Shown here: positions 9,969 to 63,994 of the stretch, one piece after another
Layout: every line of letters starts with the position of its first letter
Numbering within the stretch: the stretch's first letter is position 1
Source of the DNA: a virus
Direction: 5' to 3' (one strand)
Length of the DNA: 64,000 bases
IMG/VR virus record: IMGVR_UViG_3300030387_000070
Position numbers and translations under genes: made by a program
Notes under the pieces: model-generated
What the model saw: the letters and a program-made list of their open reading frames with translations, nothing else
Told to the model about the DNA's origin: nothing
The model's database searches: none

Positions 9969-10655
9969 ATGATGGCTGATACTTATATTAAAATCTGGGA
10001 TACTTACGAGAGCTACTTCGAACCCCTTAGTGCTGCTGAGGTGGGGCGTCTGGTACTGGCGATGATGAAATACAAATCGTCTGGAACGGAGCCTGAACTT
10101 AACGGAAATGAGCGGTATGTTTGGCCTGCTGTGAAGAGAGATTTGGATAAAGATGCCGAATACATCGAAGGTAAGAGGATTTCTGGTAAAGCTGGTGGTT
10201 CATCAAGCAAGCGTAAGCAAAACGAAGCAAACGCAAGCAAAACAAAGCTAGAAAAAGAAAAAGAGAAAGAAAAAGATAAGATATCGTCTTCGTCTTGTGA
10301 TGAGATGACAACGACAAAACCTATCGAGGATGTTTTCCGAGAGAATATCGGGAAGCTTGGTGCTACTGGTCAAAAGGCTTTAGCAGAATATGTTAAGCGC
10401 ATGGGTGACGAACTTGTGCTTGCTGTGATTGGTAAGTGTTCTGATCTCGGCGGTAGCACATGGGCTTATGTGCGAAAAGCTCTTGATGAAGCAGAATCTC
10501 TTGGTTGCAAGACTGCTGATGATTATCGCCGGGCTTGTCCGATAGGGAGTGGTCGTAACACGAGAGTGGATAGACAATCTCCCAGTGGGAATGATTGGCT
10601 AAAAAATGCAACGAAACGTCGTTCACTAGTTAAAAGAGAACTGGAAACAGCATGA
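9969..10655 (+). CDS. putative replisome organizer / DnaD-like replication initiation protein
   Basis: The C-terminal region (GKLGATGQKALAEYVKRMGDELVLAVIGKCSDLG...YVRKALDEAESLG) is DnaD-like; a low-complexity Lys/Glu linker is encoded by DNA repeats. Confidence 0.4.
   Translation: MMADTYIKIWDTYESYFEPLSAAEVGRLVLAMMKYKSSGTEPELNGNERYVWPAVKRDLDKDAEYIEGKRISGKAGGSSSKRKQNEANASKTKLEKEKEKEKDKISSSSCDEMTTTKPIEDVFRENIGKLGATGQKALAEYVKRMGDELVLAVIGKCSDLGGSTWAYVRKALDEAESLGCKTADDYRRACPIGSGRNTRVDRQSPSGNDWLKNATKRRSLVKRELETA
10205..10280. repeat. iteron-like short direct repeats (AAGCAAA(A)C x3 plus GAAAAA x4) inside the replication-protein gene
   Basis: Seen directly: gtAAGCAAAACgAAGCAAACgcAAGCAAAACaaagc, then agaaaaagaaaaagagaaagaaaaag. 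Confidence 0.4.
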
Positions 10656-10670
10656 GTGGAGGTTTAAATT

Positions 10671-11072
10671 ATGGGACTGTTACTCGGTTTGGGTTTGCTT
10701 GGTGCAGCGTTTGGTATTGATGCAGTGAAGCAAGCACCGTTTGATAGGGCATATCGCCGTCTGGAAAATGAATGGGGAACTTGTACATCGGAAGAGAGTA
10801 AACGATGTGATGCTCTGAAATATGCCGTACAGAACGGTTTGTGCTTCGAGAATGAAAAGAAGCCTGTGATTGAGTGGCAGAAGCTGAGGGATCTTCAGTG
10901 GAAATATCAGCTGGCTGGCATCTCTTGGCCGAGAGAATCTGCGATTCGAGATGTGTGCCGTCTGGCGGCTCGTGACCGTGGATTTGAGTACAAAGGCTAT
11001 CTGCGAAACACGTTGACGTTTGGTTATATCACTGATCCGAAAAATATTTGCAAGCTTGGCATCGTAGATTGA
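10671..11072 (+). CDS. hypothetical protein
   Basis: RBS GGAGG upstream. Confidence 0.35.
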   Translation: MGLLLGLGLLGAAFGIDAVKQAPFDRAYRRLENEWGTCTSEESKRCDALKYAVQNGLCFENEKKPVIEWQKLRDLQWKYQLAGISWPRESAIRDVCRLAARDRGFEYKGYLRNTLTFGYITDPKNICKLGIVD

Positions 11073-12704: not shown

Positions 12705-12857
12705 ATGGGCGTATTAGTAGACCGGGAAACGGCAAAGAAAGTTGAAAGAATCTTTGAACATCCAAACGAAATCTACTCTGTATATCTCAAATCGTCTGAC
12801 GAAGCAGTCTGGCTCCAAGGAAAAGTTGAACTATACAAATATTTAAGAAGCTTGTAA
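12705..12857 (+). CDS. hypothetical small protein (50 aa)
   Basis: RBS AGAAGGAGA upstream. Confidence 0.3.
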   Translation: MGVLVDRETAKKVERIFEHPNEIYSVYLKSSDEAVWLQGKVELYKYLRSL

Positions 12858-12884
12858 AACTAAGTTCTACGGAGGAGATACATT

Positions 12885-13082
12885 ATGAAAAAGTTCGTTG
12901 CTCTTTTTGAAGGTTGGAATGATAAACACGATCATGAATGTATGTGCTATGTTATTGATGTGGATGATGACTTTGAAAGCATTTTGAGTGTTGAAGAACA
13001 GGCAGAGAGGATGGCTCGAAATGAATATCCTCATCTGAAAAGTTTTGAGACGCTTTACATCAAAGAACTGCTTAACAGATAA
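12885..13082 (+). CDS. hypothetical protein
   Basis: RBS GGAGGAGA upstream. Confidence 0.35.
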   Translation: MKKFVALFEGWNDKHDHECMCYVIDVDDDFESILSVEEQAERMARNEYPHLKSFETLYIKELLNR

Positions 13083-15667: not shown

Positions 15668-16594
15668 ATGCTTACTGAAGAAAAAATCAACGCTTTTGCC
15701 GAAAGGTATTCTGATAAAAGCGGTAAGTTTGTTGTATCGACACTTAACAATGTTATGATCTATGAGGCCGAGTGTGGGTATGAGTTGTTTGATTTTACAA
15801 AAAATGATTTTGTAAAGATGTTTGCAAAATACAATTGGGTGAACTCAAGTCGTTCATTTAGAAATGTGAAATCAATAATCACTGGCTACATCAAAAGTGA
15901 AGATCGTACAAGTTTGTATGACTTGGCTGAATTTTCGGAAAATGACGTAAGTTCAGACGATATGTATGCAGACAAGTATTTTGCATCGGTTGATGAATTT
16001 GTTGACTTATTAAATAAATACGAAGAGCCATATCAGATTCGTATGAACGTGATTGCTGTATTATACTGGATCGGACTTACCGCTGGTGAAATTGTTAATC
16101 TAACAATCAATGATGTTGATTTTGAATCTCGTACTGTTCTCAATAGGACTGGTATTGATGCGAGGTTGATGGATATCATCAAGCAGTGTTATGAAATGAA
16201 ACAATATGATGCTCCCAACATGGGAGGATACAGAACGTTTTATGTCATAAACGGTGATTACATCCTTCGCAAAACAGAGGACAGGACTGGAGCAGACAGT
16301 GACCCAAAGATATCTACAAATACAATTCATACCTATTTTATGAGATTGAATGATATTCTCGAAAAAAGAGGTTGTTCTAAGATTTTGGACCAAAGACATT
16401 TAACAAGAAACAACGAGTATATCAAGGTTTATGACTATTGCAAAACTCATCCAGAATTTAATCTTGTAGAACTTAGCTTCGGAAATGGTAAAGATCCTCT
16501 TGCAGACATTATCGGAAGAAAGTGTAGCAAGGTAGCCTATATTAGCTTCCGGCAAGGATACAAGGGCTGGATTGAGTATTTCCATAAAAATTAA
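15668..16594 (+). CDS. hypothetical protein (308 aa)
   Basis: RBS AAGGAG upstream. Confidence 0.4.
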   Translation: MLTEEKINAFAERYSDKSGKFVVSTLNNVMIYEAECGYELFDFTKNDFVKMFAKYNWVNSSRSFRNVKSIITGYIKSEDRTSLYDLAEFSENDVSSDDMYADKYFASVDEFVDLLNKYEEPYQIRMNVIAVLYWIGLTAGEIVNLTINDVDFESRTVLNRTGIDARLMDIIKQCYEMKQYDAPNMGGYRTFYVINGDYILRKTEDRTGADSDPKISTNTIHTYFMRLNDILEKRGCSKILDQRHLTRNNEYIKVYDYCKTHPEFNLVELSFGNGKDPLADIIGRKCSKVAYISFRQGYKGWIEYFHKN

Positions 16595-16670: not shown

Positions 16671-18884
16671 ATGAGAACGCTTTTGCTGTTCCGTGGAGCA
16701 CCAGGTTGTGGGAAGTCCACCTATATTAAAGAGCATAATCTTGAGCAGTATGTATTGAATGCTGATACACTTCGACTTATGTGCCAGAGCGCACAGGAAA
16801 CACCTGCCGGGCGGATGGAGATCTCTCCGCAGAATGATGATGTTGTATGGGAGATGCTTTTCAAACTGCTTGAGGTGCGTATGAGTCATGGCGAGTTTAC
16901 CGTGATTGATGCAACGAATTCCAAGACGGTCGAAATGAATCGTTATAAGAATCTTGCAAAACAGTATCGTTATCGGATGTATGTTATTGACATGACGGAC
17001 CTTCCGATTGAGGAATGCAAACGAAGAAACGCTCAGAGAGAATGGCTGAATCGAGTTCCTGAAGCGGCCATTGATAAGATGTACGCTCGGTTTGCTACTC
17101 AAAAAGTTCCTTCTGGTGTGACAGTTCTTCCTTCTACTACGGATGTGATGTCCGATTTGAACTACTGTCCGAATGACTTCAACCAGTGGAAGAAGATCCA
17201 TATCATCGGTGATGTTCATGGCTGTTATACTTGTTTAAGTGAATACCTTGGTGAGATGAAGGACGACGAACTGTATATCTTCGTTGGTGATTATCTCGAT
17301 CGTGGCATCGAAAACGTTGAGGTATTCAAGTTCTTGTGTGATGTTGTAAATAACAACCGCAAGAATGTGATCCTTTTGGAGGGCAATCATGAGTGTTGGC
17401 TAAACAAGTGGGGGCATGATGAACCGGTTCAGAGTGAAGAGTTTGCAAACTACACTCGTCCGCAGCTCTTTAAAGCCGGTATTGACAAGAACACTGCTCG
17501 TAAGATCTATTCCAGAGTAGGCCAATGTGCCTACTTTGAGTATGATGGGAAGCGGTATTTCGTGAGCCACGGTGGTTTGAGTTATCTGCCTTATTTTCTT
17601 CCTTTCGTATCTGCTGATCAGATGATTAAAGGTGTAGGTCGCTATCCTGATATGCTAACCGTGGCTGAGTCTTGGGAAAAATCGATGCCGGATAGCTACA
17701 TTCAGATCTTCGGCCATCGAAATGTGCAGGATGTTCCTATTGATATGGGGCATCGGTGCTACAATCTCGAAGGAAAAATCGAGTTTGGTGGATATCTCCG
17801 TTGCGTTGAACTTGAACACGGTCAGTCAATCAAATGTGTAGAAACCAAGAACGATGTGTTCCGAAAAGAGGAGCCAAAGACTGAAACTGCCGTTGAAATG
17901 AAAACTGAGTTCGATAACGCAGAACTTGTTAGTAAGATGCGTCAAAGCAAATATGTGTTTGAGAAGCGATTCGGAGATATTTCTTCTTTCAACTTCTCTC
18001 GTGAAGCATTTTATAAGAAGCACTGGGATGAGGTTTCTACCAAAGCAAGGGGATTGTTCATTAACACAAAGACGAATAAGATTGTAGCTCGAAGCTATGA
18101 TAAGTTCTTTGCGGTTGATGAGCGGAATGAAACGAGAATTGGAAACCTACAGAACACTTTGAAGTTCCCAGTGACTGCATATCTAAAAGAGAACGGATTT
18201 CTTGGTATCATTTCGTATGATGCAGAACAGGATGGTCTGTTCATTGCAAGTAAATCCACTCCTGAAGGGCCTTTTGCAGATATGTTCCGAAAGATTATTA
18301 TGGATACTACTTCCGATGAAGATCGTAAGAATCTGAAGGAGGTTGCCAAGGAGCATGGCTCCATCATCTTTGAGGTTATTGATCCTGTGAATGATGCTCA
18401 TATCATAGAATACAAGAAACCGCACATTGTTTTGCTGGATGTTGTTGCAAACGATATGAATTTCAGTGTGATAGATTATGATGACTTGAAACGTGTCGCA
18501 GAAAAGTGTCATCTGCAGATTAAGGAGAAGGTTAAAACCTTTGAGAACTGGAGTGAATTCTATCCTTGGTATGAGGAAGTCATGAATGAGAACTATCTGT
18601 ACCATGACATCGAGCATGTTGAAGGCTTTGTTCTGAGAGATAGTAACAACTTTATGTTCAAGTTAAAGCTTCCTTATTATAAGCATTGGAAGTTCCTGCG
18701 TGGTGTTATGAAGAGCGTCCAGAAACGTGGCTATTACGAAAACACCGCCAAGCTGTTTACGGCTGAAGATAATTTGTTCTATGGTTGGATGCGTGAGCAA
18801 CGAGAGAAAGATCAAGAGGCGTTCAGCAAGAAGGGAATCATTCAGCTGCGAAATGAGTTCTATGCAAGTCAGCAGAAGAGTTGA
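16671..18884 (+). CDS. polynucleotide kinase-phosphatase-ligase (Pnkp-like RNA repair enzyme): P-loop kinase, calcineurin-like phosphoesterase and nucleotidyltransferase (ligase-like) domains
   Basis: Walker A GAPGCGKST at the N-terminus; metallophosphoesterase motifs GDVHG, GDYLDRG and GNHE; C-terminal nucleotidyltransferase motifs KENG (KxNG), EGFVLR and KLKLPYYK. Confidence 0.65.
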   Translation: MRTLLLFRGAPGCGKSTYIKEHNLEQYVLNADTLRLMCQSAQETPAGRMEISPQNDDVVWEMLFKLLEVRMSHGEFTVIDATNSKTVEMNRYKNLAKQYRYRMYVIDMTDLPIEECKRRNAQREWLNRVPEAAIDKMYARFATQKVPSGVTVLPSTTDVMSDLNYCPNDFNQWKKIHIIGDVHGCYTCLSEYLGEMKDDELYIFVGDYLDRGIENVEVFKFLCDVVNNNRKNVILLEGNHECWLNKWGHDEPVQSEEFANYTRPQLFKAGIDKNTARKIYSRVGQCAYFEYDGKRYFVSHGGLSYLPYFLPFVSADQMIKGVGRYPDMLTVAESWEKSMPDSYIQIFGHRNVQDVPIDMGHRCYNLEGKIEFGGYLRCVELEHGQSIKCVETKNDVFRKEEPKTETAVEMKTEFDNAELVSKMRQSKYVFEKRFGDISSFNFSREAFYKKHWDEVSTKARGLFINTKTNKIVARSYDKFFAVDERNETRIGNLQNTLKFPVTAYLKENGFLGIISYDAEQDGLFIASKSTPEGPFADMFRKIIMDTTSDEDRKNLKEVAKEHGSIIFEVIDPVNDAHIIEYKKPHIVLLDVVANDMNFSVIDYDDLKRVAEKCHLQIKEKVKTFENWSEFYPWYEEVMNENYLYHDIEHVEGFVLRDSNNFMFKLKLPYYKHWKFLRGVMKSVQKRGYYENTAKLFTAEDNLFYGWMREQREKDQEAFSKKGIIQLRNEFYASQQKS

Positions 18885-19001: not shown

Positions 19002-19086
19002 GCCAAGGTGCTGCAAATGGGAGACAGGGCGAGCCCAAACCTCGCTGTGGAAACACATGCGGTTTCGAATACCGTCCTTGGCACCA
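19002..19086 (+). tRNA. tRNA-Leu(CAA), type II, CCA encoded
   Basis: Hand-folded: acceptor GCCAAGG/CCTTGGC, U8, T-loop TTCGAAT, long variable arm, anticodon loop CCCAAAC with an unusual C33, discriminator A73. Confidence 0.55.
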
Positions 19087-19114
19087 GATAATTTTATGAA
19101 GAAAGGATGATTGC

Positions 19115-19798
19115 ATGGTTAATAGGGCAGAAGATCATATTGGTGATGTCTTTGATTTGTTTGAGGTGATTGATGTTATTCGAGATGAAAATAATATTCC
19201 ATCTTACAAATGTCGATGTAAAGAATGTGGATGGACAGGGCTAAAAAATATAGCTCAGGCGAGAGCGGTTAAAGTGTGTCGGCATAAACAATCGAGTGGC
19301 GATTATAGAAATTTTTCTACACGGTGGAAAAACAAAAGAATCGGACGAATCTTTCATGGAATGAAAGCAAGATGCTATGATGTTGATGATAAAAACTATA
19401 TAACGTATGGCATGAAAGGAATTTGTGTTTATCAAGAATGGTTGGATAATCCAAAGTCATTTGAAGAGTGGTCGTTGAAAAATGGATACAAAGATAGTTT
19501 GACAATCGATAGAATTGATTCGACAAAAGATTACTGTCCTGATAATTGCAGATGGATATCATTGGAAGATAATTCAAAATATAAATCCACAACTCGAATG
19601 TTAGAAGTAGATGGTGAAATACATACGGGACGTGATTGGGCGGCAGAATTAGGGCTTGGAACAAACACGATAAATAAATATGTAAGAAGATACGGAGAAG
19701 ATAATACAAAACAATTTATAAGAAGAGTATTAAAGGACCCGGATAAAGTGAATTCTCGACAAGGGAAACAAACTATCTATAATCTTTACATGAACTAA
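19115..19798 (+). CDS. HNH homing endonuclease (HNH_3-type)
   Basis: HNH signature IDRIDSTKDYCPDNCRWISLEDN; low GC relative to neighbours; sits between tRNA genes. Confidence 0.55.
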   Translation: MVNRAEDHIGDVFDLFEVIDVIRDENNIPSYKCRCKECGWTGLKNIAQARAVKVCRHKQSSGDYRNFSTRWKNKRIGRIFHGMKARCYDVDDKNYITYGMKGICVYQEWLDNPKSFEEWSLKNGYKDSLTIDRIDSTKDYCPDNCRWISLEDNSKYKSTTRMLEVDGEIHTGRDWAAELGLGTNTINKYVRRYGEDNTKQFIRRVLKDPDKVNSRQGKQTIYNLYMN

Positions 19799-19805
19799 AT
19801 TGAAA

Positions 19806-19847
19806 TGGCCCAGTGTAAAAACTGAGTACATTGGGCCAAATATTTAT
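19806..19847 (+). terminator. rho-independent terminator (TGGCCCA...TGGGCCA plus AT-rich tail)
   Basis: 7-bp inverted repeat at 19806-19812 and 19832-19838 after the HNH gene. Confidence 0.45.
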
Positions 19848-19851
19848 ATGA

Positions 19852-19935
19852 GCACCCGTGGTGAAATTGGCAACCACGATGGACTTAAAATCCATTCCCG
19901 GTAACGGGTTGCGAGTCCGAGTCTCGCCGGGTGCA
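19852..19935 (+). tRNA. tRNA-Leu(TAA), type II
   Basis: Acceptor GCACCCG/CGGGTGC, anticodon loop CTTAAAA, 15-nt variable arm, A73. Confidence 0.65.
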
Positions 19936-19940
19936 TATTT

Positions 19941-20016
19941 CTGGGCGTAGCGAAGTTGGCATCGCACCTGTTTTGGGAACAGGGGACCGCAAGTTCAAAT
20001 CTTGTCGCTCAGACCA
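19941..20016 (+). tRNA. tRNA-Pro(TGG), CCA encoded
   Basis: Anticodon loop TTTGGGA, T-loop TTCAAAT, acceptor with one G-U pair, ends ACCA. Confidence 0.65.
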
Positions 20017-20023
20017 CTACGAG

Positions 20024-20111
20024 GATTCGCCAAGTTGGTAAGGCAGCGGAATTTGACTCCGCCAGCGCTGAACAAGCGGTCACAGGTTCGAGTCCTGTAT
20101 CCTCGGCTTAT
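20024..20111 (+). tRNA. anomalous type-II tRNA with anticodon TTG (Ser-like G73 body)
   Basis: Acceptor CGAGGAT/ATCCTCG, U8, D-arm GCC-AAGTTGGTAA-GGC, anticodon arm GCGGA-ATTTGAC-TCCGC, 19-nt variable arm, T-loop TTCGAGT, discriminator G. Confidence 0.45.
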
Positions 20112-20113
20112 AT

Positions 20114-20198
20114 GCGGGTATGGTGTAACTGGCAGCCACGTCAGATTTAGGATCTGATGCCGAAAGGCGTGAGGGATCGTGCCCCTCTACCCGTACCA
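20114..20198 (+). tRNA. tRNA-Leu(TAG), type II, CCA encoded
   Basis: Anticodon arm TCAGA-TTTAGGA-TCTGA, 13-nt variable arm, A73, CCA present. Confidence 0.6.
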
Positions 20199-20298
20199 CG
20201 GTCATAGAATGGTTGCGTACCGTTTGTTGATCTCCTTTACTATTATTCCCGGCTCGCCAGTGATGGTGCAGTAGTGCTTTGTAAGCTGGGTTTTCATG

Positions 20299-20372
20299 CA
20301 GCGGTCGTACAACGGCTAGTACATCAGCCTTCCAAGCTGAGGATGAGGTTTCGACTACCTTTCGCTGCTCCA
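20299..20372 (+). tRNA. tRNA-Gly(TCC), CCA encoded
   Basis: Acceptor GCAGCGG/TCGCTGC, anticodon loop CTTCCAA, T-loop TTCGACT, ends TCCA. Confidence 0.6.
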
Positions 20373-20560
20373 ATCTTGTATGGGTAGGATCTTTAGCGGT
20401 CAGATCCAGCCGCGCCTGTGCAAGATACCACCCCGAAAGGGGCGAGATATAGGAAATGTGCATCGCTGTTATTCCTTCCTCGTCTATATGATATAGATGC
20501 AATAGTGTTTTATAAGGAAGGTCCCCAGTTGAATAGTTGCAGCTGTTTGACTGGTAATAT

Positions 20561-20634
20561 GGGATAGTAGCTCAGTTGGTCAGAGCTGGCGGCTCATAAC
20601 CGCTTGGTCGCGAGTTCAAATCTTGCCTGTCCCA
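20561..20634 (+). tRNA. tRNA-Met(CAT), elongator-like
   Basis: Acceptor GGGATAG, D-arm GCTC-AGTTGGTCA-GAGC, anticodon loop CTCATAA, T-loop TTCAAAT; the 1-72 pair is formed, so not an initiator. Confidence 0.6.
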
Positions 20635-20742
20635 CTAACCCGATAGGGTGAATACATAGAATTTGCTAGAAATTTTGTTTTATGGGCGAATAAATAATAT
20701 GACGTTGATACGTCTATTATTTTTCGCTAATTTTTAAAGTTT

Positions 20743-33323: not shown

Positions 33324-36300
33324 ATGCCAAGTAGTCTACACACACACTCGAATTACAGTCTACTAGATGGGTACTCTTCTCCTGAAGAAAATCTAAAAAG
33401 AGCATCAGAACTTGGTTTGAAAGCCATTGCCATTACGGAACATGGTGAGGTAACAAGCTGGCCGTACTATTCTGAACTAAAAGGCAAGTATCCGAATGTC
33501 AAACTTCTTTATGGTATCGAGGCATACGAGTGCGAAGATAGGGAAGTCAAGGACAAGAATAGTAAATATTGGCATTTAATCATTATTGCCAAGAACGAAG
33601 CTGGTCGTCAGGCAGTCAATCGCTTATCTACACTCGGTCATCTTCATGGCTTTTACAGCCGTCCTCGTATCACAAAAGAGGATATCGCTAAGGAAGATAC
33701 GAATAATTTGATTATCCTGTCTGCTTGTTTGGCGAGTAGGCTGTCAAGAACGGATGATTATGACACTTGTGTCAAGCTGGTTCAAGAGTATAAGAGCTTA
33801 TTCCCTCACTATTATCTTGAGGTTCAGGCTCATGCAAACAGTGAACAAGCAAAATATAATCAGAAAATCATGCGGTTGGCAAACGATACTCATACAAAAG
33901 TAGTCGTCACAAACGATGTTCATGCTGCTACCAAAGAGGATCTTTATTATCAAGATTATTTCCTTCGTATCGCTCATGATACGGAAACCGCCACAGAAAT
34001 CTATGAAGGGTGCTACTTCATGTCTCGTGATGAGCAGCATAGAGCCCTTGATAATCAGATTGGATACGATGCGGCAGAATGGTGTATCAATAATACTGAC
34101 GAGGTTGCTGATCTGTGTGATGATGTGGATATGCCTTGGCATGAACCGGAACTTCCCAAAATTGAGATTCCGCCACAGTATTCTAATTCGGCAGCTTATC
34201 TGAAAGACCTTGTAAAAGAGGGATGTAAGAAACGTAGCATTGATAAGTTTGATGTAGAAAAGCAGAAAATCTATCGAAAACGTGTTGATGATGAGCTGTT
34301 TGTCATTGAGAAGAAAGACTTCTGTGACTACTTTTTGATTCTGGTTGATTACATCAACTGGTGTAAGAAAAATGATGTCATTGTTGGCCCTGGTCGTGGT
34401 TCTGCTGCTGGTTCTCTTGTATGTTACCTGATTGGCATTACGCAGCTTGATTCCATCAAGTATGAACTTGACTTCGGACGATTCCTTACCATTGAGCGAA
34501 AAGACCTTCCTGACGTTGATGTTGATGTCAGTGACCGTGCCAAGGTTGTCGAGTATCTGACACAGAAGTATGGAGAAGATCGAGTAGTTCAGGTTATGAA
34601 CATCGTGTACACTACTCCGGTTACTTCAATTCAAGATGTTGGTAAGGTGCTCGGTTTCCCGTATGCCGAGATAAGAAAAATCAGTGAGAAGTTCGTTCAA
34701 AAGACATGGAAAGATTGCCTTGAAGCCAACACAGAAGTAGCTGAGAATCCAAAATATAAGGAACTACTTGATATTGCAAGTCATATCAATGGTCGCCCAC
34801 GAGGATATGGTATCCATGCTGGCGGTGTTATTGTTTGCCGACATCCTTATTACGAGTATATCGGTATCCGGCATGGTACTGACGGAGAGCACGTTATTTC
34901 CGTTGATAAGGTGATGGACGAGAAGATTGGACTTGTTAAGTTTGATATTCTTGGTGTTGCGTCGCTGGTTGCCATTGATGAAGCGAAGCGTGAGGATAAT
35001 ATTCCAGACTGGGAAATTGATATCAACAATCCTGAATTTGAAAACGACAAGGCAACTTACGATTTGATTTGCTCCGGTAAGACAGACAATCTATTCCAGA
35101 TTGAATCGTCCGGCATGAAAGATCTGGTTGCGCAGCTTCAACCTAGGTCGATTGAAGAACTATCCGCTTTGATTGCTCTTTATCGCCCTGATGCAATGCC
35201 GTCCATTCCTACATACGTTGACTGCAAGTATCATCCCGAACACATTCATTATTTCCATCCTGATATGGAACCAATTTTCCGCAGTACCTATGGCGTGAAC
35301 ATCTATCAGGAACAGAGTATGAAGCTCACAAAGGTCTTTGGTGGCCGAAGCGATGCTGGTGCTGATAGAATGCGTAAGTGCTTGGCAAAGAAAAAACCTG
35401 AGAAGGTCAAGGAAGAGGTAGAACTTCTTCACGATGAAATTCTTGCAAATGGATACGATAAAGCAACCGCTGAGTATATTTGTAACGAGTTGTCAACGAA
35501 GGGCGGCTATGGTTTCAATAAGTGTATTTCTGGCAACACGAAGTTGTGGAGAATGAGAAGTGGTCGGTTTGAGCCTACTGTTGCAGAAATGTACAAGATT
35601 CGCAATGATAGGAAGTTTGCTATCTTGACAAATCACACACATCTTAGGGACAAATATAGACGATACGGTTACGGTAGTGCGTTGTCAATGTGTGATGATG
35701 GACGCATTCGGATGAATAAAATTATTGATATCAAGTATTCTGGATATCGAATGCTGTATCGTGTAACAACTGAGACCGGTGCGACCATTGAATGTACAGA
35801 TAATCATAAATTCCCGACAACTGATGGCATTAAGTTGCTTTCTGATATGAGAATTGGTGATGAGTTATATGAGATTGGTGCTTATGAGGTTTGCAGAAAC
35901 AAGTATAATCTGACGGATGGAAATTTCGAAAGCAATTTGCCGAAGCCGGGACAAATGGGGTTCCAGACGAAGGAATTTAGTGCGAATCGTCTGTTTGAAG
36001 AGACGAAAGAAAAGAATAGACTGAAAAGAAGCCCATGTGAAATTTGCGGTAGAGAATATTCCGAAGATGCTCGTTTTGAAGTACACCACAAAGATTTTGA
36101 CCATACGCATAATGTACCTGATAACTATACTTGGTGCTGTGCATCGTGTCACAAGAAACTTCATTACGCTCACGGGCGAGTAAAACAGTATGAAAAGGGC
36201 ATCCCGTCAAAGACCGCTAAGATTATTTCTATTGAGGAAATTGGTTTTGATGATGTCTATGATGTGACAATGGATGCTCCGAATCACAATTTTGTAGTGT

Positions 36301-37340
36301 CAACTGGTATTGTAACTTGCAACTCTCATTCACAAGCCTATGCTGACATCTGTCTCCAGACTGCATATTTGAAAGCCCACCATCCGCTTGCATTCTTTAA
36401 GGCTATGCTGAACCTGAATAAAGCAAAGGTCGGCAAGGTCAACAAGATTATGGTGGATGCACGCAGCTTTGATATTCAGATTCTTCCGCCGAGTATCAAT
36501 CGTTCCGGCATGGACTTTACTGTGTCAAATGGTAAAATCCTGTTTGGCTTATCTGCTATCGGTGGTATTGGCGATACGCTTGCTGAAACTATCATTGCAG
36601 AACGAGATAGAAATGGAAAATTTAAGGGACTTGATGATTTCACGAGTCGTGTTCGTGCAACGAAGGCGCAGATTATTGCATTGGTTAAATCCGGTGCGAT
36701 TCCTACAAAGAACAAACGAATATTCTTGGAAAAGTACATTACCAGCGGTCTGGAACAATCTGAGTTTAAGCCAGTCAGTACACTTCCTACCAAGGCAGTT
36801 TTGCTGAGTAAGTGGGGTATTGATACAGAGCATTATAAGGTTGGTAAAAAGGTTGACAAAGAAACCGTCTTACGGATCTATAATGAAAAGCGCCGTGTCG
36901 TACATGAAACCGAGAAGCTGAAAAAGAAAGAAGCGTATATGGACGAGCAGACCACAAAATATCTACAAGATGAAGAACTTTGGGAGTTCCAGACTTTGCA
37001 GACCTTTATCAGTGACCCGAATCCTTTCGAGAAGGCATTTACTTATATCAAGGATTTCTCTGAAATCGAAGAAGGTGATTCTTGTGTACTGGTTGGTATT
37101 ATCGCAAAGATTCAGAAGAAGAAAACGAAGACTGGTATGCAGTTTGCATTTGTAAATCTGTATTCTGGCGATGGTATTATTGAGCTGACCGTATGGCCGA
37201 GAGTCTTGTCGGATTATCAGGATTTGATTGTAAAGGGAAGTCAGGTGGCTGTGCTTGGAAAGAAGGAAGATGAATCGCACGTTATTGCAAGCAACTTCAA
37301 ACCTTACAAGCAGTGGTTGCATGATAGAGAGATAGCGTAA
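33324..37340 (+). CDS. dnaE: DNA polymerase III alpha (DnaE-family) with in-frame intein
   Basis: PHP domain HTHSNYSLLDG at the N-terminus; the GYGFNK-SHSQAYA catalytic motif is interrupted by an insert. Confidence 0.75.
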   Translation: MPSSLHTHSNYSLLDGYSSPEENLKRASELGLKAIAITEHGEVTSWPYYSELKGKYPNVKLLYGIEAYECEDREVKDKNSKYWHLIIIAKNEAGRQAVNRLSTLGHLHGFYSRPRITKEDIAKEDTNNLIILSACLASRLSRTDDYDTCVKLVQEYKSLFPHYYLEVQAHANSEQAKYNQKIMRLANDTHTKVVVTNDVHAATKEDLYYQDYFLRIAHDTETATEIYEGCYFMSRDEQHRALDNQIGYDAAEWCINNTDEVADLCDDVDMPWHEPELPKIEIPPQYSNSAAYLKDLVKEGCKKRSIDKFDVEKQKIYRKRVDDELFVIEKKDFCDYFLILVDYINWCKKNDVIVGPGRGSAAGSLVCYLIGITQLDSIKYELDFGRFLTIERKDLPDVDVDVSDRAKVVEYLTQKYGEDRVVQVMNIVYTTPVTSIQDVGKVLGFPYAEIRKISEKFVQKTWKDCLEANTEVAENPKYKELLDIASHINGRPRGYGIHAGGVIVCRHPYYEYIGIRHGTDGEHVISVDKVMDEKIGLVKFDILGVASLVAIDEAKREDNIPDWEIDINNPEFENDKATYDLICSGKTDNLFQIESSGMKDLVAQLQPRSIEELSALIALYRPDAMPSIPTYVDCKYHPEHIHYFHPDMEPIFRSTYGVNIYQEQSMKLTKVFGGRSDAGADRMRKCLAKKKPEKVKEEVELLHDEILANGYDKATAEYICNELSTKGGYGFNKCISGNTKLWRMRSGRFEPTVAEMYKIRNDRKFAILTNHTHLRDKYRRYGYGSALSMCDDGRIRMNKIIDIKYSGYRMLYRVTTETGATIECTDNHKFPTTDGIKLLSDMRIGDELYEIGAYEVCRNKYNLTDGNFESNLPKPGQMGFQTKEFSANRLFEETKEKNRLKRSPCEICGREYSEDARFEVHHKDFDHTHNVPDNYTWCCASCHKKLHYAHGRVKQYEKGIPSKTAKIISIEEIGFDDVYDVTMDAPNHNFVVSTGIVTCNSHSQAYADICLQTAYLKAHHPLAFFKAMLNLNKAKVGKVNKIMVDARSFDIQILPPSINRSGMDFTVSNGKILFGLSAIGGIGDTLAETIIAERDRNGKFKGLDDFTSRVRATKAQIIALVKSGAIPTKNKRIFLEKYITSGLEQSEFKPVSTLPTKAVLLSKWGIDTEHYKVGKKVDKETVLRIYNEKRRVVHETEKLKKKEAYMDEQTTKYLQDEELWEFQTLQTFISDPNPFEKAFTYIKDFSEIEEGDSCVLVGIIAKIQKKKTKTGMQFAFVNLYSGDGIIELTVWPRVLSDYQDLIVKGSQVAVLGKKEDESHVIASNFKPYKQWLHDREIA
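35523..36323 (+). mobile_element. intein (267 aa) with HNH homing-endonuclease domain inside dnaE
   Basis: The insert starts with Cys after GYGFNK and ends ...IVTCN before Ser (SHSQAYA); internal HNH motif CEICG...HHKDFDHTHN...CCASCH. Confidence 0.7.
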
Positions 37341-59982: not shown

Positions 59983-60810
59983 ATGATTATTGATTGCAAA
60001 TCTATTGCACAAGATATCAAAGATAAAATCAAGAATATTATCGCAGAGGCCGATTACACTCCTGTTTTACATATTTATCAAGTAGGGGATAATCCTGCGT
60101 CTAATGCTTATATTAGAGGTAAATTGCGTGACTGTGAAGAGGTGGGGATCGAAGTAGAACTTATTAAACTGCCAGAAAATATTACTGAAGATGAATTGAA
60201 TAACAAGATCTTAGAAGATTATAATTGGGAATATGTGAACGGTATCATTGTTCAGCTTCCGTTGCCAAAACATATCAATCCTAAAAATATCTACATTCCA
60301 GACGCAGTTGATGTTGATGGATTTAATTCTACATCCAAATTTCAGCCTTGCACTCCGCTGGGCGTTATGAAGATTTTTGACTCCATCGGTTACGATCTGG
60401 ATGGCAAGAATGTGCTTGTGTGTGGTCAATCTGATATCGTAGGTCGTCCGTTGGTCAATATGCTGATTAAGCGGCACTGTAATGTAATCTCTGTGAATAG
60501 TACGGGTTCCGCCATGAAAGCCACTGCCATCGGATTTGGAATAGTCAATGTTATTATTTCCGCCGTTGGTAAGCGTGACTTTATTTCGACGTTTGATTTA
60601 TTTGATACGGATGTTTGCATCGACGTTGGTATCAACTATGACGAGAACGGAAAGCAGCACGGCGATTGTACTGATGCTGTTTATGATATGAAGGATGTCA
60701 AAGTAACACCTCGTATCGGCGGAGTTGGCCTTATGACTCGCGCTATGCTCTTATATAATGTATGTGTGGCGAAATACGGGGCAGAGAAGATGGAAGAGGT
60801 GATTGAATGA
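59983..60810 (+). CDS. folD: bifunctional methylenetetrahydrofolate dehydrogenase/cyclohydrolase FolD
   Basis: RBS AAAGGAGG upstream; FolD pattern VQLPLPKHI...DAVDVDGF...QPCTPLGV...GKNVLVCGQSDIVGRPL...NVISVNSTGS. Confidence 0.8.
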   Translation: MIIDCKSIAQDIKDKIKNIIAEADYTPVLHIYQVGDNPASNAYIRGKLRDCEEVGIEVELIKLPENITEDELNNKILEDYNWEYVNGIIVQLPLPKHINPKNIYIPDAVDVDGFNSTSKFQPCTPLGVMKIFDSIGYDLDGKNVLVCGQSDIVGRPLVNMLIKRHCNVISVNSTGSAMKATAIGFGIVNVIISAVGKRDFISTFDLFDTDVCIDVGINYDENGKQHGDCTDAVYDMKDVKVTPRIGGVGLMTRAMLLYNVCVAKYGAEKMEEVIE

Positions 60811-61037
60811 AAGAACAGAAAATTCCGCTTGAACAGCAACTTATATATAACGTAGAAGAAGTAGCAACCCTCTTGAAAACTACACGCCCTGTGGTATACT
60901 CTTTAATAGAAAAGGGTTATCTTCCGAGCATTGTTCTTGGCAGACGGAAAGTGACGAGGAAGGCACTACTTACATTTCTTGATAAGAACGAGAACACTAA
61001 TTTTAGCCAAATCTTGAAATCAAAACAACTATCGTAA
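60807..61037 (+). CDS. excisionase-family HTH DNA-binding protein (Xis-like)
   Basis: Helix-turn-helix YNVEEVATLLKTTRPVVYSLIEKGYLPSIVLGRR; last phage gene before the GC shift. Confidence 0.5.
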   Translation: MKEQKIPLEQQLIYNVEEVATLLKTTRPVVYSLIEKGYLPSIVLGRRKVTRKALLTFLDKNENTNFSQILKSKQLS

Positions 61038-61049
61038 GCCATTTGGTCG

Positions 61050-61100
61050 TGCCCACAAAATTGCCCACATTTTATTTTCTGTGGGCAAACCGTGGGCAAA
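61050..61100. repeat. paired inverted repeats at the prophage right boundary: TGCCCACA x2 (61050, 61062) facing GTGGGCAAA x2 (61081, 61092)
   Basis: Seen directly; 11-12 bp spacing between direct copies. Confidence 0.55.
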
Positions 61101-61149
61101 TCGACAATTTGTTTCCAAAGAATGACGTACACACGTCAAAACTTTATAG

Positions 61150-61224
61150 ATGGCAAAGGACGAAGCCCGTCACGGCCGTGGCTTCGAGGGCCTGCTGAAG
61201 CGCTACTTCAACACCGAAGTCTGA
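61150..61224 (+). other. 24-codon ORF MAKDEARHGRGFEGLLKRYFNTEV, possible displaced 3' end of the host integration-target gene
   Basis: High GC, and followed directly by a strong host-type terminator. Confidence 0.3.
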
Positions 61225-61261
61225 TAAGGGTTCCCCGGTTATCTATGCTGCCCGCTGCAAG

Positions 61262-61300
61262 GACATTCCGCCTTGCAGCGGGCTTTTTGTGTTTCAATCG
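61262..61300 (+). terminator. rho-independent terminator (CCCGCTGCAAGG...CCTTGCAGCGGG plus TTTTT)
   Basis: 12-bp GC-rich stem followed by a T5 run. Confidence 0.65.
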
Positions 61301-61390
61301 TGGTGACGACTTCTTTCGTAAAAATGGAATCCTAAAGATGCGCAAAGCGAACGCGGTGCGCATTTAAAATCGTCCCGCTAAAAGAGGCAG

Positions 61391-61431
61391 CTGCGCAGAA
61401 TTTCGCACAGCTGCCTCTTTTGTGGTGGCTG
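61391..61431 (-). terminator. rho-independent terminator for copA (bidirectional hairpin AGAGGCAGCTGCGC...GCACAGCTGCCTCT)
   Basis: Stem and T-run immediately 3' of the copA stop on the minus strand. Confidence 0.6.
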
Positions 61432-61435
61432 AACC

Positions 61436-63994
61436 TTACTGGATGCCGGTAACAGGATAATCCTGTGCTTCCACGGCCTTCTTCAGCACCTCATCGTCCA
61501 CTTCGGCGTTCAGGGTAACGATGGCGGTACCGGCTTCGTGGCTGACAACAGCCTCGTCCACCTGCGGCAGAGCCTCCAAAGCCTTCTTGACGCGGGCTTC
61601 ACAGTGATGGCACATCATACCTTCTACGGTCAGGGTCTTTTTCATAGCAATCTTCTCCTTGTAAGTTGTATCTTCCTCCGCTGCGGGCTGCACAAGGGCA
61701 GCGGGCAGGGCAGGGACGTGTTTGGGCGGGTGGTCATGTTTTGCGCTGTGCAGGTCAAACAGGTTCAGCCGCAAGGCGTTGCTCACCACGCAGAAGCTGG
61801 AAAGGCTCATGGCAGCTGCGCCGAACATGGGGTTCAGCGTCAGTCCCAATGGAATGAACACACCGGCTGCCAGCGGGATGCCGATGATGTTATAGATGAA
61901 CGCCCAGAACAGGTTTTCGTGGATGTTGCGCAGGGCAGCACGGCTCAGCCGGATGGCGGCGGGCACGTCCGACAGCTTGGAGTTCATCAGTACCACGTCT
62001 GCAGCGTCAATGGCTACGTCTGTGCCTGCGCCAATGGCAATGCCGGTGTCAGCGCGGGTCAGGGCAGGAGCATCGTTGATGCCGTCGCCCACCATAGCTA
62101 CCTTGCCGTACTTTTGCAGCTGCCGGATGACGGCCTCCTTGCCCTCGGGCAGCACTCCCGCGATCACCTCGTCCACCCCGGCCTGTCGGCCAATGGCCTC
62201 GGCAGTGCGCTGGTTGTCGCCGGTCAGCATCACGACCCGGATACCCATATTTCGCAGCTCCCGGATGGCCTGCGGGCTGTCCTCCTTGATGGTATCTGCC
62301 ACTGCGATAACGCCCAGCAAACGACCTGCGCCACCAAAGAACAGGGGCGTCTTACCCTGTGCAGCCAGCGCGGCGGCTTCGGCTTGCAGCGCAGCGGGGA
62401 TGGCGACCTTTGCGCCGATAAAGGCCGCATTGCCGCCAAAGATCTCCTTGCCTTCCAGCGTGGCGGTAAGGCCGTTGCCCGGCAGGGCGGTAAAATCGGT
62501 AACAGAGGGCAGCTCCAGCTGCTTTTCCTCCGCATAGGCCAGCACTGCCCGCGCCAACGGGTGCTCGCTGCGGCCCTCCAGCGCGGCGGCCAGCGTGAGC
62601 AGCTCGGTCTCAGTCACGCCCGCAGCGGGCAGAAGGTCGGTGACGGTAGGTTCGCCGCAGGTGATTGTGCCGGTCTTGTCCAGCGCTACGATGCGGGTGC
62701 GTCCGGCTTCTTCCAGCGCCGCAGCGGTCTTGAACAGGATGCCGTTCTTCGCACCAAGGCCGTTGCCCACCATAATAGCCACCGGCGTTGCCAGACCCAG
62801 CGCACAGGGGCAGCTGATGACCAGCACCGAGATGCCCCGCGCCAGCGCGTAGCCCACATCCCGCCCCAGCAGCAGCCAGACAAGGGTGGTGACCACCGCA
62901 ATGCTGATGACCGCAGGCACGAAAAAGCCGGATACGGTATCTGCGATCTTTGCAATGGGGGCTTTGGTGGCGGCGGCATCGCTGACCATGCGGATGATCT
63001 GCGCCAGCGTGGTGTCCTCGCCTACGCGGGTAGCGCGGCACTGCAAATAGCCGGACTGGTTGGTGGTGGCGGCGCTTACCTTATCGCCCACGGCCTTGTC
63101 CACCGGGATGCTTTCGCCGGTCAGGGCGCTCTCGTTCACGGCGCTGCTGCCCTCCAGCACAATGCCGTCCACCGGGATGTTCTCGCCCGGACGCACCACA
63201 AAGATGTCCTCTTTCTGCACCTGCTCAATGGGCACGGTCACCTCGGCACCGTCCCGCAGCAGGGTGGCGGTTTTGGGGGCTAGCTTCATCAGGCTTTTGA
63301 GCGCATCGGTGGTCTTGCCCTTGGAGCGTGCCTCCAGCATTTTGCCCACCGTGATGAGGGTCAAAATCATGGCGGCAGACTCAAAATAGAACTCCATCAT
63401 GTAGTGCATGACTAGTTCCTCGTTGCCGTGTAGCTGCGCATCGGTCATGGCAAACAGGGCGTAGGTGCTCCATACAAAGCTTGCCATCGAGCCCATAGCC
63501 ACCAGCGTATCCATGTTGGGGGAGCGGTGCACCAGCCCCTTGAAGCCGTTGATGAAAAATTTCTGGTTGATCACCATCACGATGCCCGCCAGCAGCAGCT
63601 GTACCAGCCCCATGGCAATGTGGTTGCCGTCAAACCAGCGGGGCAGCGGCCAGCCCCACATCATGTGCCCCATGGAAAAGTACATCAGCACCAGCAAAAA
63701 GCCCAGCGAGGCGATAAGCCGCCGCTTTAGCTTGGGTGTTTCGTGGTCGGCCAGTGCGTCCAGCTCTGCGCTGGTACTGGCAGCGGCAGCAGCGGTCTTT
63801 TTAGGGCTTGCACCGTAACCGGCCTGCTCTACGGCACGGATAATGGCGGAATCTTCTGCTGTGCCCTCCACCCCCATGGAGTTTGTCAGCAGGCTTACCG
63901 AACAGCCGGTAACGCCCGGCACGCTCTTTACGGCCTTTTCTACCCGGGCAGAGCAGGCCGCGCAGCTCATGCCGGTAACGTTGAATTGTTCCAT
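61436..63994 (-). CDS. copA: copper-translocating P-type ATPase CopA (heavy-metal-binding domains at both termini)
   Basis: [13 protein letters not shown] and [12 protein letters not shown] metal-binding sites; CPC transduction motif [11 protein letters not shown]; DKTGT phosphorylation site; GDGINDAP; about 65% GC. Confidence 0.85.

Follow-up and report, generated by a model that had tools for sequence, protein, structure and literature searches.

A probable prophage attachment site within the 3' end of a Faecalibacterium reverse rubrerythrin gene

Why does the base composition of a viral record change abruptly close to its right end? Could this change mark the place where a prophage joins the chromosome of its host and, if so, which gene was entered, by which enzyme, and what became of that gene? 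The DNA analysed here, hereafter the window, is a stretch of 64,000 nucleotides from IMG/VR record IMGVR_UViG_3300030387_000070. We conclude that positions 61038-61224 are very probably attR, the right end of a large temperate prophage (about 150 kb, in the range of 140-160 kb, with a GC content of 40%) inserted in the 3' end of a Faecalibacterium rubrerythrin gene. The mechanism is an ordinary, classic one, operating in a phage family for which no published description was found; a literature search likewise returned no description of rubrerythrin as an attachment site.

The phage/host boundary and the target gene

Left of position 61100 the GC content of the entire window lies between 0.35 and 0.47, and all long open reading frames of this AT-rich part are on the plus strand; beyond that position GC climbs to 55-70%. 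Measured per 100 nt, the values are 0.40 (61050-61149), 0.57 (61150-61249) and 0.62-0.70 past 61900, which bears out the jump that a first-pass annotation of the sequence had placed after the Xis-like gene. The same annotation had proposed the right junction of a prophage here, with the left end beyond the window. We agree on both points, the first being supported by the matching attB, attP and attL sites described below.

The boundary between phage and host DNA is at 61148 (Table 1). To its left, the P arm is 100% identical in 11 lysogen sequences, agrees at 107 of 110 positions with the P arm of an attP-form contig (L129), and bears no similarity to attB. Similarity between attR of the window and the empty host sites begins at 61148 and extends through the terminator. 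In an alignment of 11 junctions, namely the window and 10 contigs, the phage side is invariant through 61160, and polymorphism of the kind that separates host strains appears from 61161 on. The 10 contigs are independent assemblies from ENA and JGI, 60-492 kb long and generated with several assemblers; each shows the same gene and, at an unchanged distance behind it, copA, csoR, an esterase gene, rpmB, scpA/B and further host genes. The exact 76-aa Xis-like protein is listed in 234 blocks of public assemblies.

Which gene was entered? An open reading frame of 24 codons that starts with ATG at 61150 encodes MAKDEARHGRGFEGLLKRYFNTEV. We rejected it as a gene in its own right: the ATG is the internal Met160 of rubrerythrin, and an in-frame stop codon lies directly upstream. 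MAKDEARHGRGFEGLLKRYFNTEV corresponds exactly to the last 24 residues of the intact 183-aa rubrerythrin found at two empty sites (L011 and L012). The earlier proposal that these codons are the displaced 3' end of an integration target is thus borne out, and the target is a reverse rubrerythrin, in which a rubredoxin-like domain precedes the rubrerythrin domain (Pfam RUBY_RBDX and Rubrerythrin, at the empty sites). The junction falls at codon 160 of 183, inside the coding region and just before the last ExxH metal-binding motif. The strong terminator noted after the 24 codons is present as well, and it is the host's own.

The host is a Faecalibacterium. CopA, encoded convergently with rubrerythrin, is 98% identical to its counterparts in Faecalibacterium intestinale CLA-AA-H281 and in two MAGs, including a Faecalibacterium MAG. 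At the empty sites of F. intestinale and the two MAGs (L011, L012 and L013), an intact rubrerythrin gene faces copA with no phage DNA between them, and attB is uninterrupted with a single copy of the core. An Rfam search at the junction identified no RNA family, only chance miRNA-type matches around the inverted repeat that follows copA.

Apart from the prophage, some Faecalibacterium strains carry a nonsense mutation, GAG to TAG, at rubrerythrin codon 85 (L114 7204-7206; L115 4386-4388; L120). The exact 84-aa rubrerythrin product (P0165) is listed in 109 blocks, and many of the contigs shown stop exactly at codon 85. We rejected this product as a truncation by insertion, as it is either the TAG allele or a contig end.

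Table 1. Features at and around the right end of the prophage. Coordinates are those of the window.
Feature	Position	Strand	Evidence or remark
Tyrosine recombinase, 275 aa	9136-9963		Pfam PF00589, E=1.2e-15
FolD-like gene (methylene-THF dehydrogenase/cyclohydrolase), second-to-last prophage gene	59983-60810	+	Pfam PF02882, E=1.7e-33; PF00763, E=8.5e-28
76-aa HTH_17 protein, last prophage gene	60807-61037	+	Pfam HTH_17, E=8.2e-10
P arm of the attachment site, phage DNA between xis and core	61038-61147	.	Alignments
Two inverted arm-motif copies, TGCCCACA (61050-61057) and TTGCCCACA (61061-61069), 12 bp apart	61050-61069	-	Position kept in sister lineage, spacer differs
Two direct arm-motif copies, TGTGGGCAAA and CGTGGGCAAA, 11 bp apart	61080-61100	+	Probable arm-type integrase binding sites (putative binding)
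Palindrome TGACGTacacACGTCA	61123-61138	.	Present; role not demonstrated
att core, 75-bp direct repeat AGATGG...GAAGTCT, common to attR, attL, attP and attB	61148-61222	+	Four-way comparison
Displaced host 3' end of reverse rubrerythrin, codons 160-183 and TGA, non-functional remnant	61150-61224	+	Identical protein at L011 and L012
Host rubrerythrin terminator, 13-bp stem and T-run	61250-61283	+	Same sequence after the intact gene at attB
Inverted repeat with 17-nt arms, 14 nt after the copA stop; host DNA	61380-61421	.	Kept in lysogens and non-lysogens
Host copper P-type ATPase CopA, convergent with rubrerythrin	61436-63994	-	Pfam E1-E2_ATPase, HMA, Hydrolase

The direct repeat, attP and attL

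A four-way comparison shows that attR and attP share the left arm, and that attL and attB share the host left side. attL (contig L155) and attP (contig L129) follow the core as far as 61222, beyond which they enter the P' arm. After the core, attL and attP continue as A-A-CGAAAAA; attR and attB continue as G-A-TAAGGG and the host terminator. Over the repeat, attR of the window and attL of L155 are identical at 74 of 75 positions. That a direct repeat should be found at the other end had been anticipated, with its copy in the window sought at 61100-61160. The repeat does exist: attL of L155 has it, and in a sister lineage a contig of 142,153 bp carries it at either end. Its actual position in the window is the one given in Table 1. 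As the lack of such a repeat had been named as grounds for rejecting the junction, the outcome speaks for true lysogeny.

The attP form occurs in the IMG/VR contigs L129 (Xis 97% identical), L132, L135 and L136, in the order xis, P arm, core, P' arm, int, and in these contigs the GC content stays at the low level of the phage for 10 kb on both sides. In L129, what comes after the P arm is the same 75-bp stretch of rubrerythrin codons, closed by TAA, then AT-rich DNA with four copies of GTGGGCAAA, and then a gene for a protein of 440 aa. In principle, such contigs may be junctions between tandem prophages instead of free phage.

attL of the window's lineage was reached by a homologue search with the 440-aa integrase. 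On the 352,798-bp lysogen contig L155, a xanthine/uracil permease gene is followed by an intact gene for the 183-aa rubrerythrin, the P' arm and int (99% identical); beyond int lie lysis and tail-fibre genes on the other strand. For this lineage, attL and attR were observed on different contigs. The sister lineage, whose Xis is about 80% identical and which targets a rubrerythrin allele ending in NVEL, presents both ends on one molecule: the 142,153-bp contig starts with core and P' arm (L151) and ends with P arm and core (L130). A separate contig (L149) shows host rubrerythrin running into the P' arm, with the gene intact at attL.

Two pattern scans of metagenomes for rubrerythrin followed by non-host DNA returned nothing in the first case and only rubrerythrins of other species in the second. 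These scans missed attL because attL looks like an intact gene, and their outcome for truncated rubrerythrin, although only negative evidence, fits gene reconstitution. Exact P-arm patterns had no match in IMG/VR, where the phage was found later via protein, and a pattern of rubrerythrin plus core matched there only an ordinary attB in another strain.

Most of the P' arm is also copied after the host rubrerythrin terminator in three contigs (L012 about 12780-13030, minus strand; L115 4745-5000; L010 about 10500-10720). The copy includes the terminator-like hairpin, GTGGGCAAA motifs and a conserved 35-nt block. Its carriers are the non-lysogenic type strain of F. intestinale, L115, in which no prophage is visible at the locus, and one lysogen. 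The copy has the look of a degraded attL, left by an older or a secondary integration; its order cannot arise by simple deletion of the present prophage.

Integrase, arm motifs and strand exchange

How would the phage enter the gene? On the circular phage genome, attP lies between the xis-like gene and the integrase gene and consists of the P arm, a 75-bp copy of the last 24 rubrerythrin codons, and a P' arm in which a TAA stop codon of the phage, a terminator-like hairpin and the promoter-like site of int are found. The 440-aa Int is predicted to bind, via its N-terminal arm-binding domain, the GTGGGCAAA motifs, four per arm, and to exchange strands close to where the 75-bp homology begins on the left. 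After integration, attL is composed of the 5' part of host rubrerythrin, the 3' end from the phage, the P' arm and int, so that the gene stays whole. attR has xis, the P arm and the original host 3' end with its terminator, that is, a dead remnant of 24 codons facing copA.

The P arm carries the first set of motifs. Two copies of TGCCCACA, at 61050 and 61062, face two copies of GTGGGCAAA, at 61081 and 61092, located as the first-pass annotation had claimed when it took them for recombinase binding sites. Their enrichment, their conservation and their presence on both arms of attP are the behaviour of arm-type sites and support that proposal. GTGGGCAA matches the window seven times against 1.6 expected; three of the seven matches lie within 51 bp, together with a fourth copy that matches only as TGCCCACA. 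This cluster is above chance, because none of 100 shuffles reaches seven matches and because the copies are conserved in relatives. Diverged relatives keep the same four P-arm copies, and four more are located on the P' arm next to int, both in attP (L129) and in attL (L155). The last of these adjoins an int promoter-like site with 10 of 12 matches. A 17-pair terminator-like hairpin lies at 7685-7725 of L155, 67 nt after the stop codon supplied by the phage.

In total, eight GTGGGCAAA copies, four per attP arm, occupy equivalent positions in two lineages despite differing intervening sequence. They are probably arm-type sites bound by the integrase rather than by Xis or a repressor. The repeats are also phased at 11-12 bp and paired as inverted copies, as for dimeric HTH proteins, and they directly follow the xis-like gene; they could then be operators for the HTH_17 (Xis-like) protein or for a phage repressor, which the copy beside the int promoter-like site would suit too, and the junction would still be a true attR. 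We consider this unlikely, if well short of negligible. Each arm carries the motif in four copies, whereas the sites of an excisionase are classically confined to one arm, as in lambda and L5. Moreover, the integrase carries an arm-binding domain that requires such sites, and no second repeated motif was noted when the arm sequences of attP and attL were read by eye.

The palindrome at 61123-61138, to which the first-pass annotation had also drawn attention, is indeed present, but its significance did not hold up: it is no more than chance and carries no statistical weight, because 23 perfect palindromes of the same 6+4+6 form occur in the window. In the 97%-related attP of L129 one of its arms is mutated; in the sister lineage, another small inverted repeat takes its place. 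Read on the minus strand, it is scored as a terminator-like hairpin, though a weak one.

Which enzyme would carry out integration? In both L129 and L155, the gene directly after the P' arm encodes a 440-aa tyrosine recombinase with the domains Arm-DNA-bind_4, Phage_int_SAM_3 and Phage_integrase (E=9.4e-21). Its catalytic domain aligns with the solved tyrosine integrases 3nkh and 6en0, and the alignment with 3nkh spans the conserved HxLRH and GH...Y boxes. The gene adjoins attL and lies outside the window; judging from L129 and L155, it is likely to encode the integrase of the window's own prophage as well. The only tyrosine recombinase that the first-pass annotation had seen is about 52 kb away. 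This gene is present, as listed in Table 1, but the integrase is the 440-aa Int at attL. A second small recombinase-like gene is found at 15668-16594, and both lie deep in the prophage, where they perhaps serve dimer resolution. As the only recombinases visible inside the window they might be thought to integrate the phage, which we regard as very unlikely. No arm-binding domain was detected in either, both are 45-52 kb from attR, and small Xer-like enzymes typically resolve dimers. The 440-aa Int, in contrast, lies directly beside attP or attL in both lineages with motif copies at its promoter, and a relative, MT835556.1, swaps the xis-int pair as a unit at this end of its genome.

The last prophage gene, directly beside attP and attR, encodes the 76-aa HTH_17 protein. 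It has a weak PHROG match to 'excisionase and transcriptional regulator', and a search for a relative of solved structure found none; it is a probable excisionase, or recombination directionality factor. Ahead of this slot, all lysogen contigs have the FolD-like gene, as does the related phage MT835556.1. There (L091 9001-11500), a FolD gene of 83% nucleotide identity is followed by a Xis and an integrase, both of Tn916 type, and immediately afterwards the GC content jumps, where a host carboxyltransferase gene begins. Integration modules and targets are therefore exchanged as a whole among relatives.

Where within the repeat are strands exchanged? From the sequences compared, exchange most likely takes place in the left part, at about 61148-61168, because the phage side is invariant only to 61160, because mosaic attRs are expected from heteroduplex within the overlap region, and because contig L145 joins via only 13 shared bases, AAGGACGAGGCTC. 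Such mosaics are seen in sister-lineage attRs, which read TCC, GCA or TCA at positions equal to 61153 and 61155. The other 55-60 bp of homology would rebuild the gene and would not be needed for recombination. L145, a 146,627-bp IMG/VR contig, has the same P-arm motifs (10216-10660) and then a truncated DegV-like open reading frame on the other strand; AAGGACGAGGCTC is all that it shares with the rubrerythrin core. It is either an off-target integration or a retargeted attP.

The fate of rubrerythrin and likeness to known systems

Does integration cost the host its gene? Judged from the attL contigs, the phage supplies its own copy of the gene end and thereby keeps rubrerythrin whole. In L155, gene calling at attL gives a product of 183 aa with both RUBY_RBDX and Rubrerythrin domains, the phage supplying the missing 24 codons and the stop TAA; in L149 the gene is likewise intact. 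The prophage might alternatively disrupt rubrerythrin, to be restored only on excision, as a regulatory switch of the kind known for SPbeta in spsM or phi10403S in comK. It is true that the insertion falls within the coding region, with 24 codons left to the stop and the last ExxH motif just beyond it, and that two odd products, P0024 and P0028, break at exactly this codon. We nevertheless judge a switch highly improbable: a target split in this way would be dead in the lysogen, whereas rubrerythrin is intact at both attL sites, no common truncated or fused rubrerythrin occurs among the best 120 homologues, and the two odd products have other explanations.

Three rubrerythrin variants were rejected as products of attL. 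P0028 is a fusion to translated Illumina adapter; P0024, a fusion of rubrerythrin to an AraC-type sequence, is a singleton on a 1.5-kb contig without viral relatives; and P0186 is a frameshift. P0124, which differs at its C-terminus, comes from other Faecalibacterium species, where rubrerythrin has other neighbouring genes. P0028 and P0024 (L093 1075-1100) both break exactly after MAKD, in the crossover region of the phage. They look like artefacts, and the shared breakpoint is curious. The contig with the AraC-type continuation (L093) ends in poly-C.

That the contig is a chimera, in which an assembler wrongly joined an AT-rich lytic phage to Faecalibacterium DNA, had been kept as an alternative. 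In its favour are the 20-point GC gap, the lytic-style genes (DnaE, primase, ligase, ribonucleotide reductase, seven tRNAs) and the absence of the integrase from the window. It is excluded for all practical purposes by an identical junction in 10 independent assemblies from different assemblers and samples, by the existence of matching attB, attP and attL sites, and by the exact coincidence of the junction with the edge of a stretch of 75 bp present in the phage's own DNA.

The prophage in rubrerythrin resembles phage 21 and the element e14 in icd of E. coli, where a tyrosine integrase acts, the gene end is replaced and the displaced original is left as a remnant. In both cases the insertion lies inside the 3' end of a protein-coding gene (here at codon 160 of 183), a homologous replacement end brought by the element restores the frame, and the gene is functional at one junction with the displaced end left as a remnant at the other, here attR. 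The present case differs in its Faecalibacterium host, in its target, reverse rubrerythrin, in a homology of 75 bp, and in a phage of about 150 kb that is far more AT-rich than its host.

The attP architecture is that of lambda: P arm, core and P' arm, a short motif repeated on either arm, an integrase with arm-binding, core-binding (SAM-like) and catalytic domains, and a small DNA-binding protein encoded beside attP. In lambda, xis and int are both at the same prophage end. Here, in contrast, attP lies between xis and int, so that in the prophage about 150 kb separate int, at attL, from xis, at attR. Unlike in lambda, where the sites are bound by Int, binding of the motifs by Int is putative here, and the homology is far longer than strand exchange needs, because it doubles as a gene end.

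In gene content, the phage is similar to the SPbeta-like phages, which are likewise large and temperate, encode their own DnaE-type polymerase, ribonucleotide reductase and nucleotide metabolism genes, have a GC content below that of their host and are integrated in a protein-coding gene. SPbeta, however, relies on a serine integrase and interrupts its target, spsM, whereas the phage described here has a tyrosine integrase and its target gene is kept whole. Distant DnaE matches are found in 120-177-kb phages of Bacillota. The catalytic domain of the integrase is homologous to that of the Tn916/Tn1549 integrases (6en0, 6emz and 6emy; E about 1e-11 to 1e-10), which together with 3nkh are its nearest relatives of solved structure. 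It differs from these in its N-terminus, which is Arm-DNA-bind_4 and not Integrase_DNA, and its excisionase candidate is of the HTH_17 type and not Tn916-Xis.

These results fix the boundary, the target gene and the integration module for a widespread prophage family of about 150 kb in Faecalibacterium, a genus of medical interest, and annotators can stop calling such contigs chimeras on account of a 20-point GC gap. The exact sequences of attB, attP, attL and attR allow lysogens, free phage and cured sites to be detected in metagenomes and PCR assays to be designed. The locus also provides a clean case of a phage that preserves a stress gene while landing in it, and shows xis-int-att modules being swapped whole between relatives.

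Rubrerythrin is an oxidative-stress gene, and Faecalibacterium is a very oxygen-sensitive gut commensal. In the lysogen, int lies directly downstream of rubrerythrin in the same direction, with only the phage hairpin terminator between them. We mention as a speculation, to which we assign little probability, that leakage through this terminator ties integrase synthesis, and the readiness to excise, to the oxygen response of the host. If this were true, prophage mobility would sense exposure to oxygen, and the use of rubrerythrin as a target in several lineages, together with the P'-arm relics, would reflect selection for such coupling rather than chance.

The window further holds genes for a DnaE with an intein, a primase, a RecD2-like helicase, a ligase and an anaerobic ribonucleotide reductase, along with seven tRNA genes. 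The DnaE-type polymerase (33324-37340) has 1338 aa, its intein spanning residues 747-998 (Pfam Intein_splicing). A phage collection contained no close relative: DnaE identity was at most about 35%, and only MT835556.1 shares FolD. The tRNA cluster (19002-20635) consists of Leu x3, Pro, Gln, Gly and Met, and most anticodons read A-ending codons; this set fits a phage of 40% GC living in a host that, in the flanking part of the window, has about 60-65% GC. Beside the cluster, at 16671-18884, lies a gene for a 737-aa fusion of kinase, phosphatase and RNA ligase (Pnkp-like RNA repair).

Lysogens with an identical xis-attR end differ just inside it (L009 1-4100; L008 1-10000). L009 has a minus-strand gene for a 975-aa DUF6273 protein, and L008 has NAMPT, NAD synthase, ThyX and a shortened FolD. 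The right end is therefore a conserved module on mosaic genomes. In contigs L001-L007, a 69-aa Acb2/Tad1-like (anti-defence) gene is located about 8.5 kb from attR.
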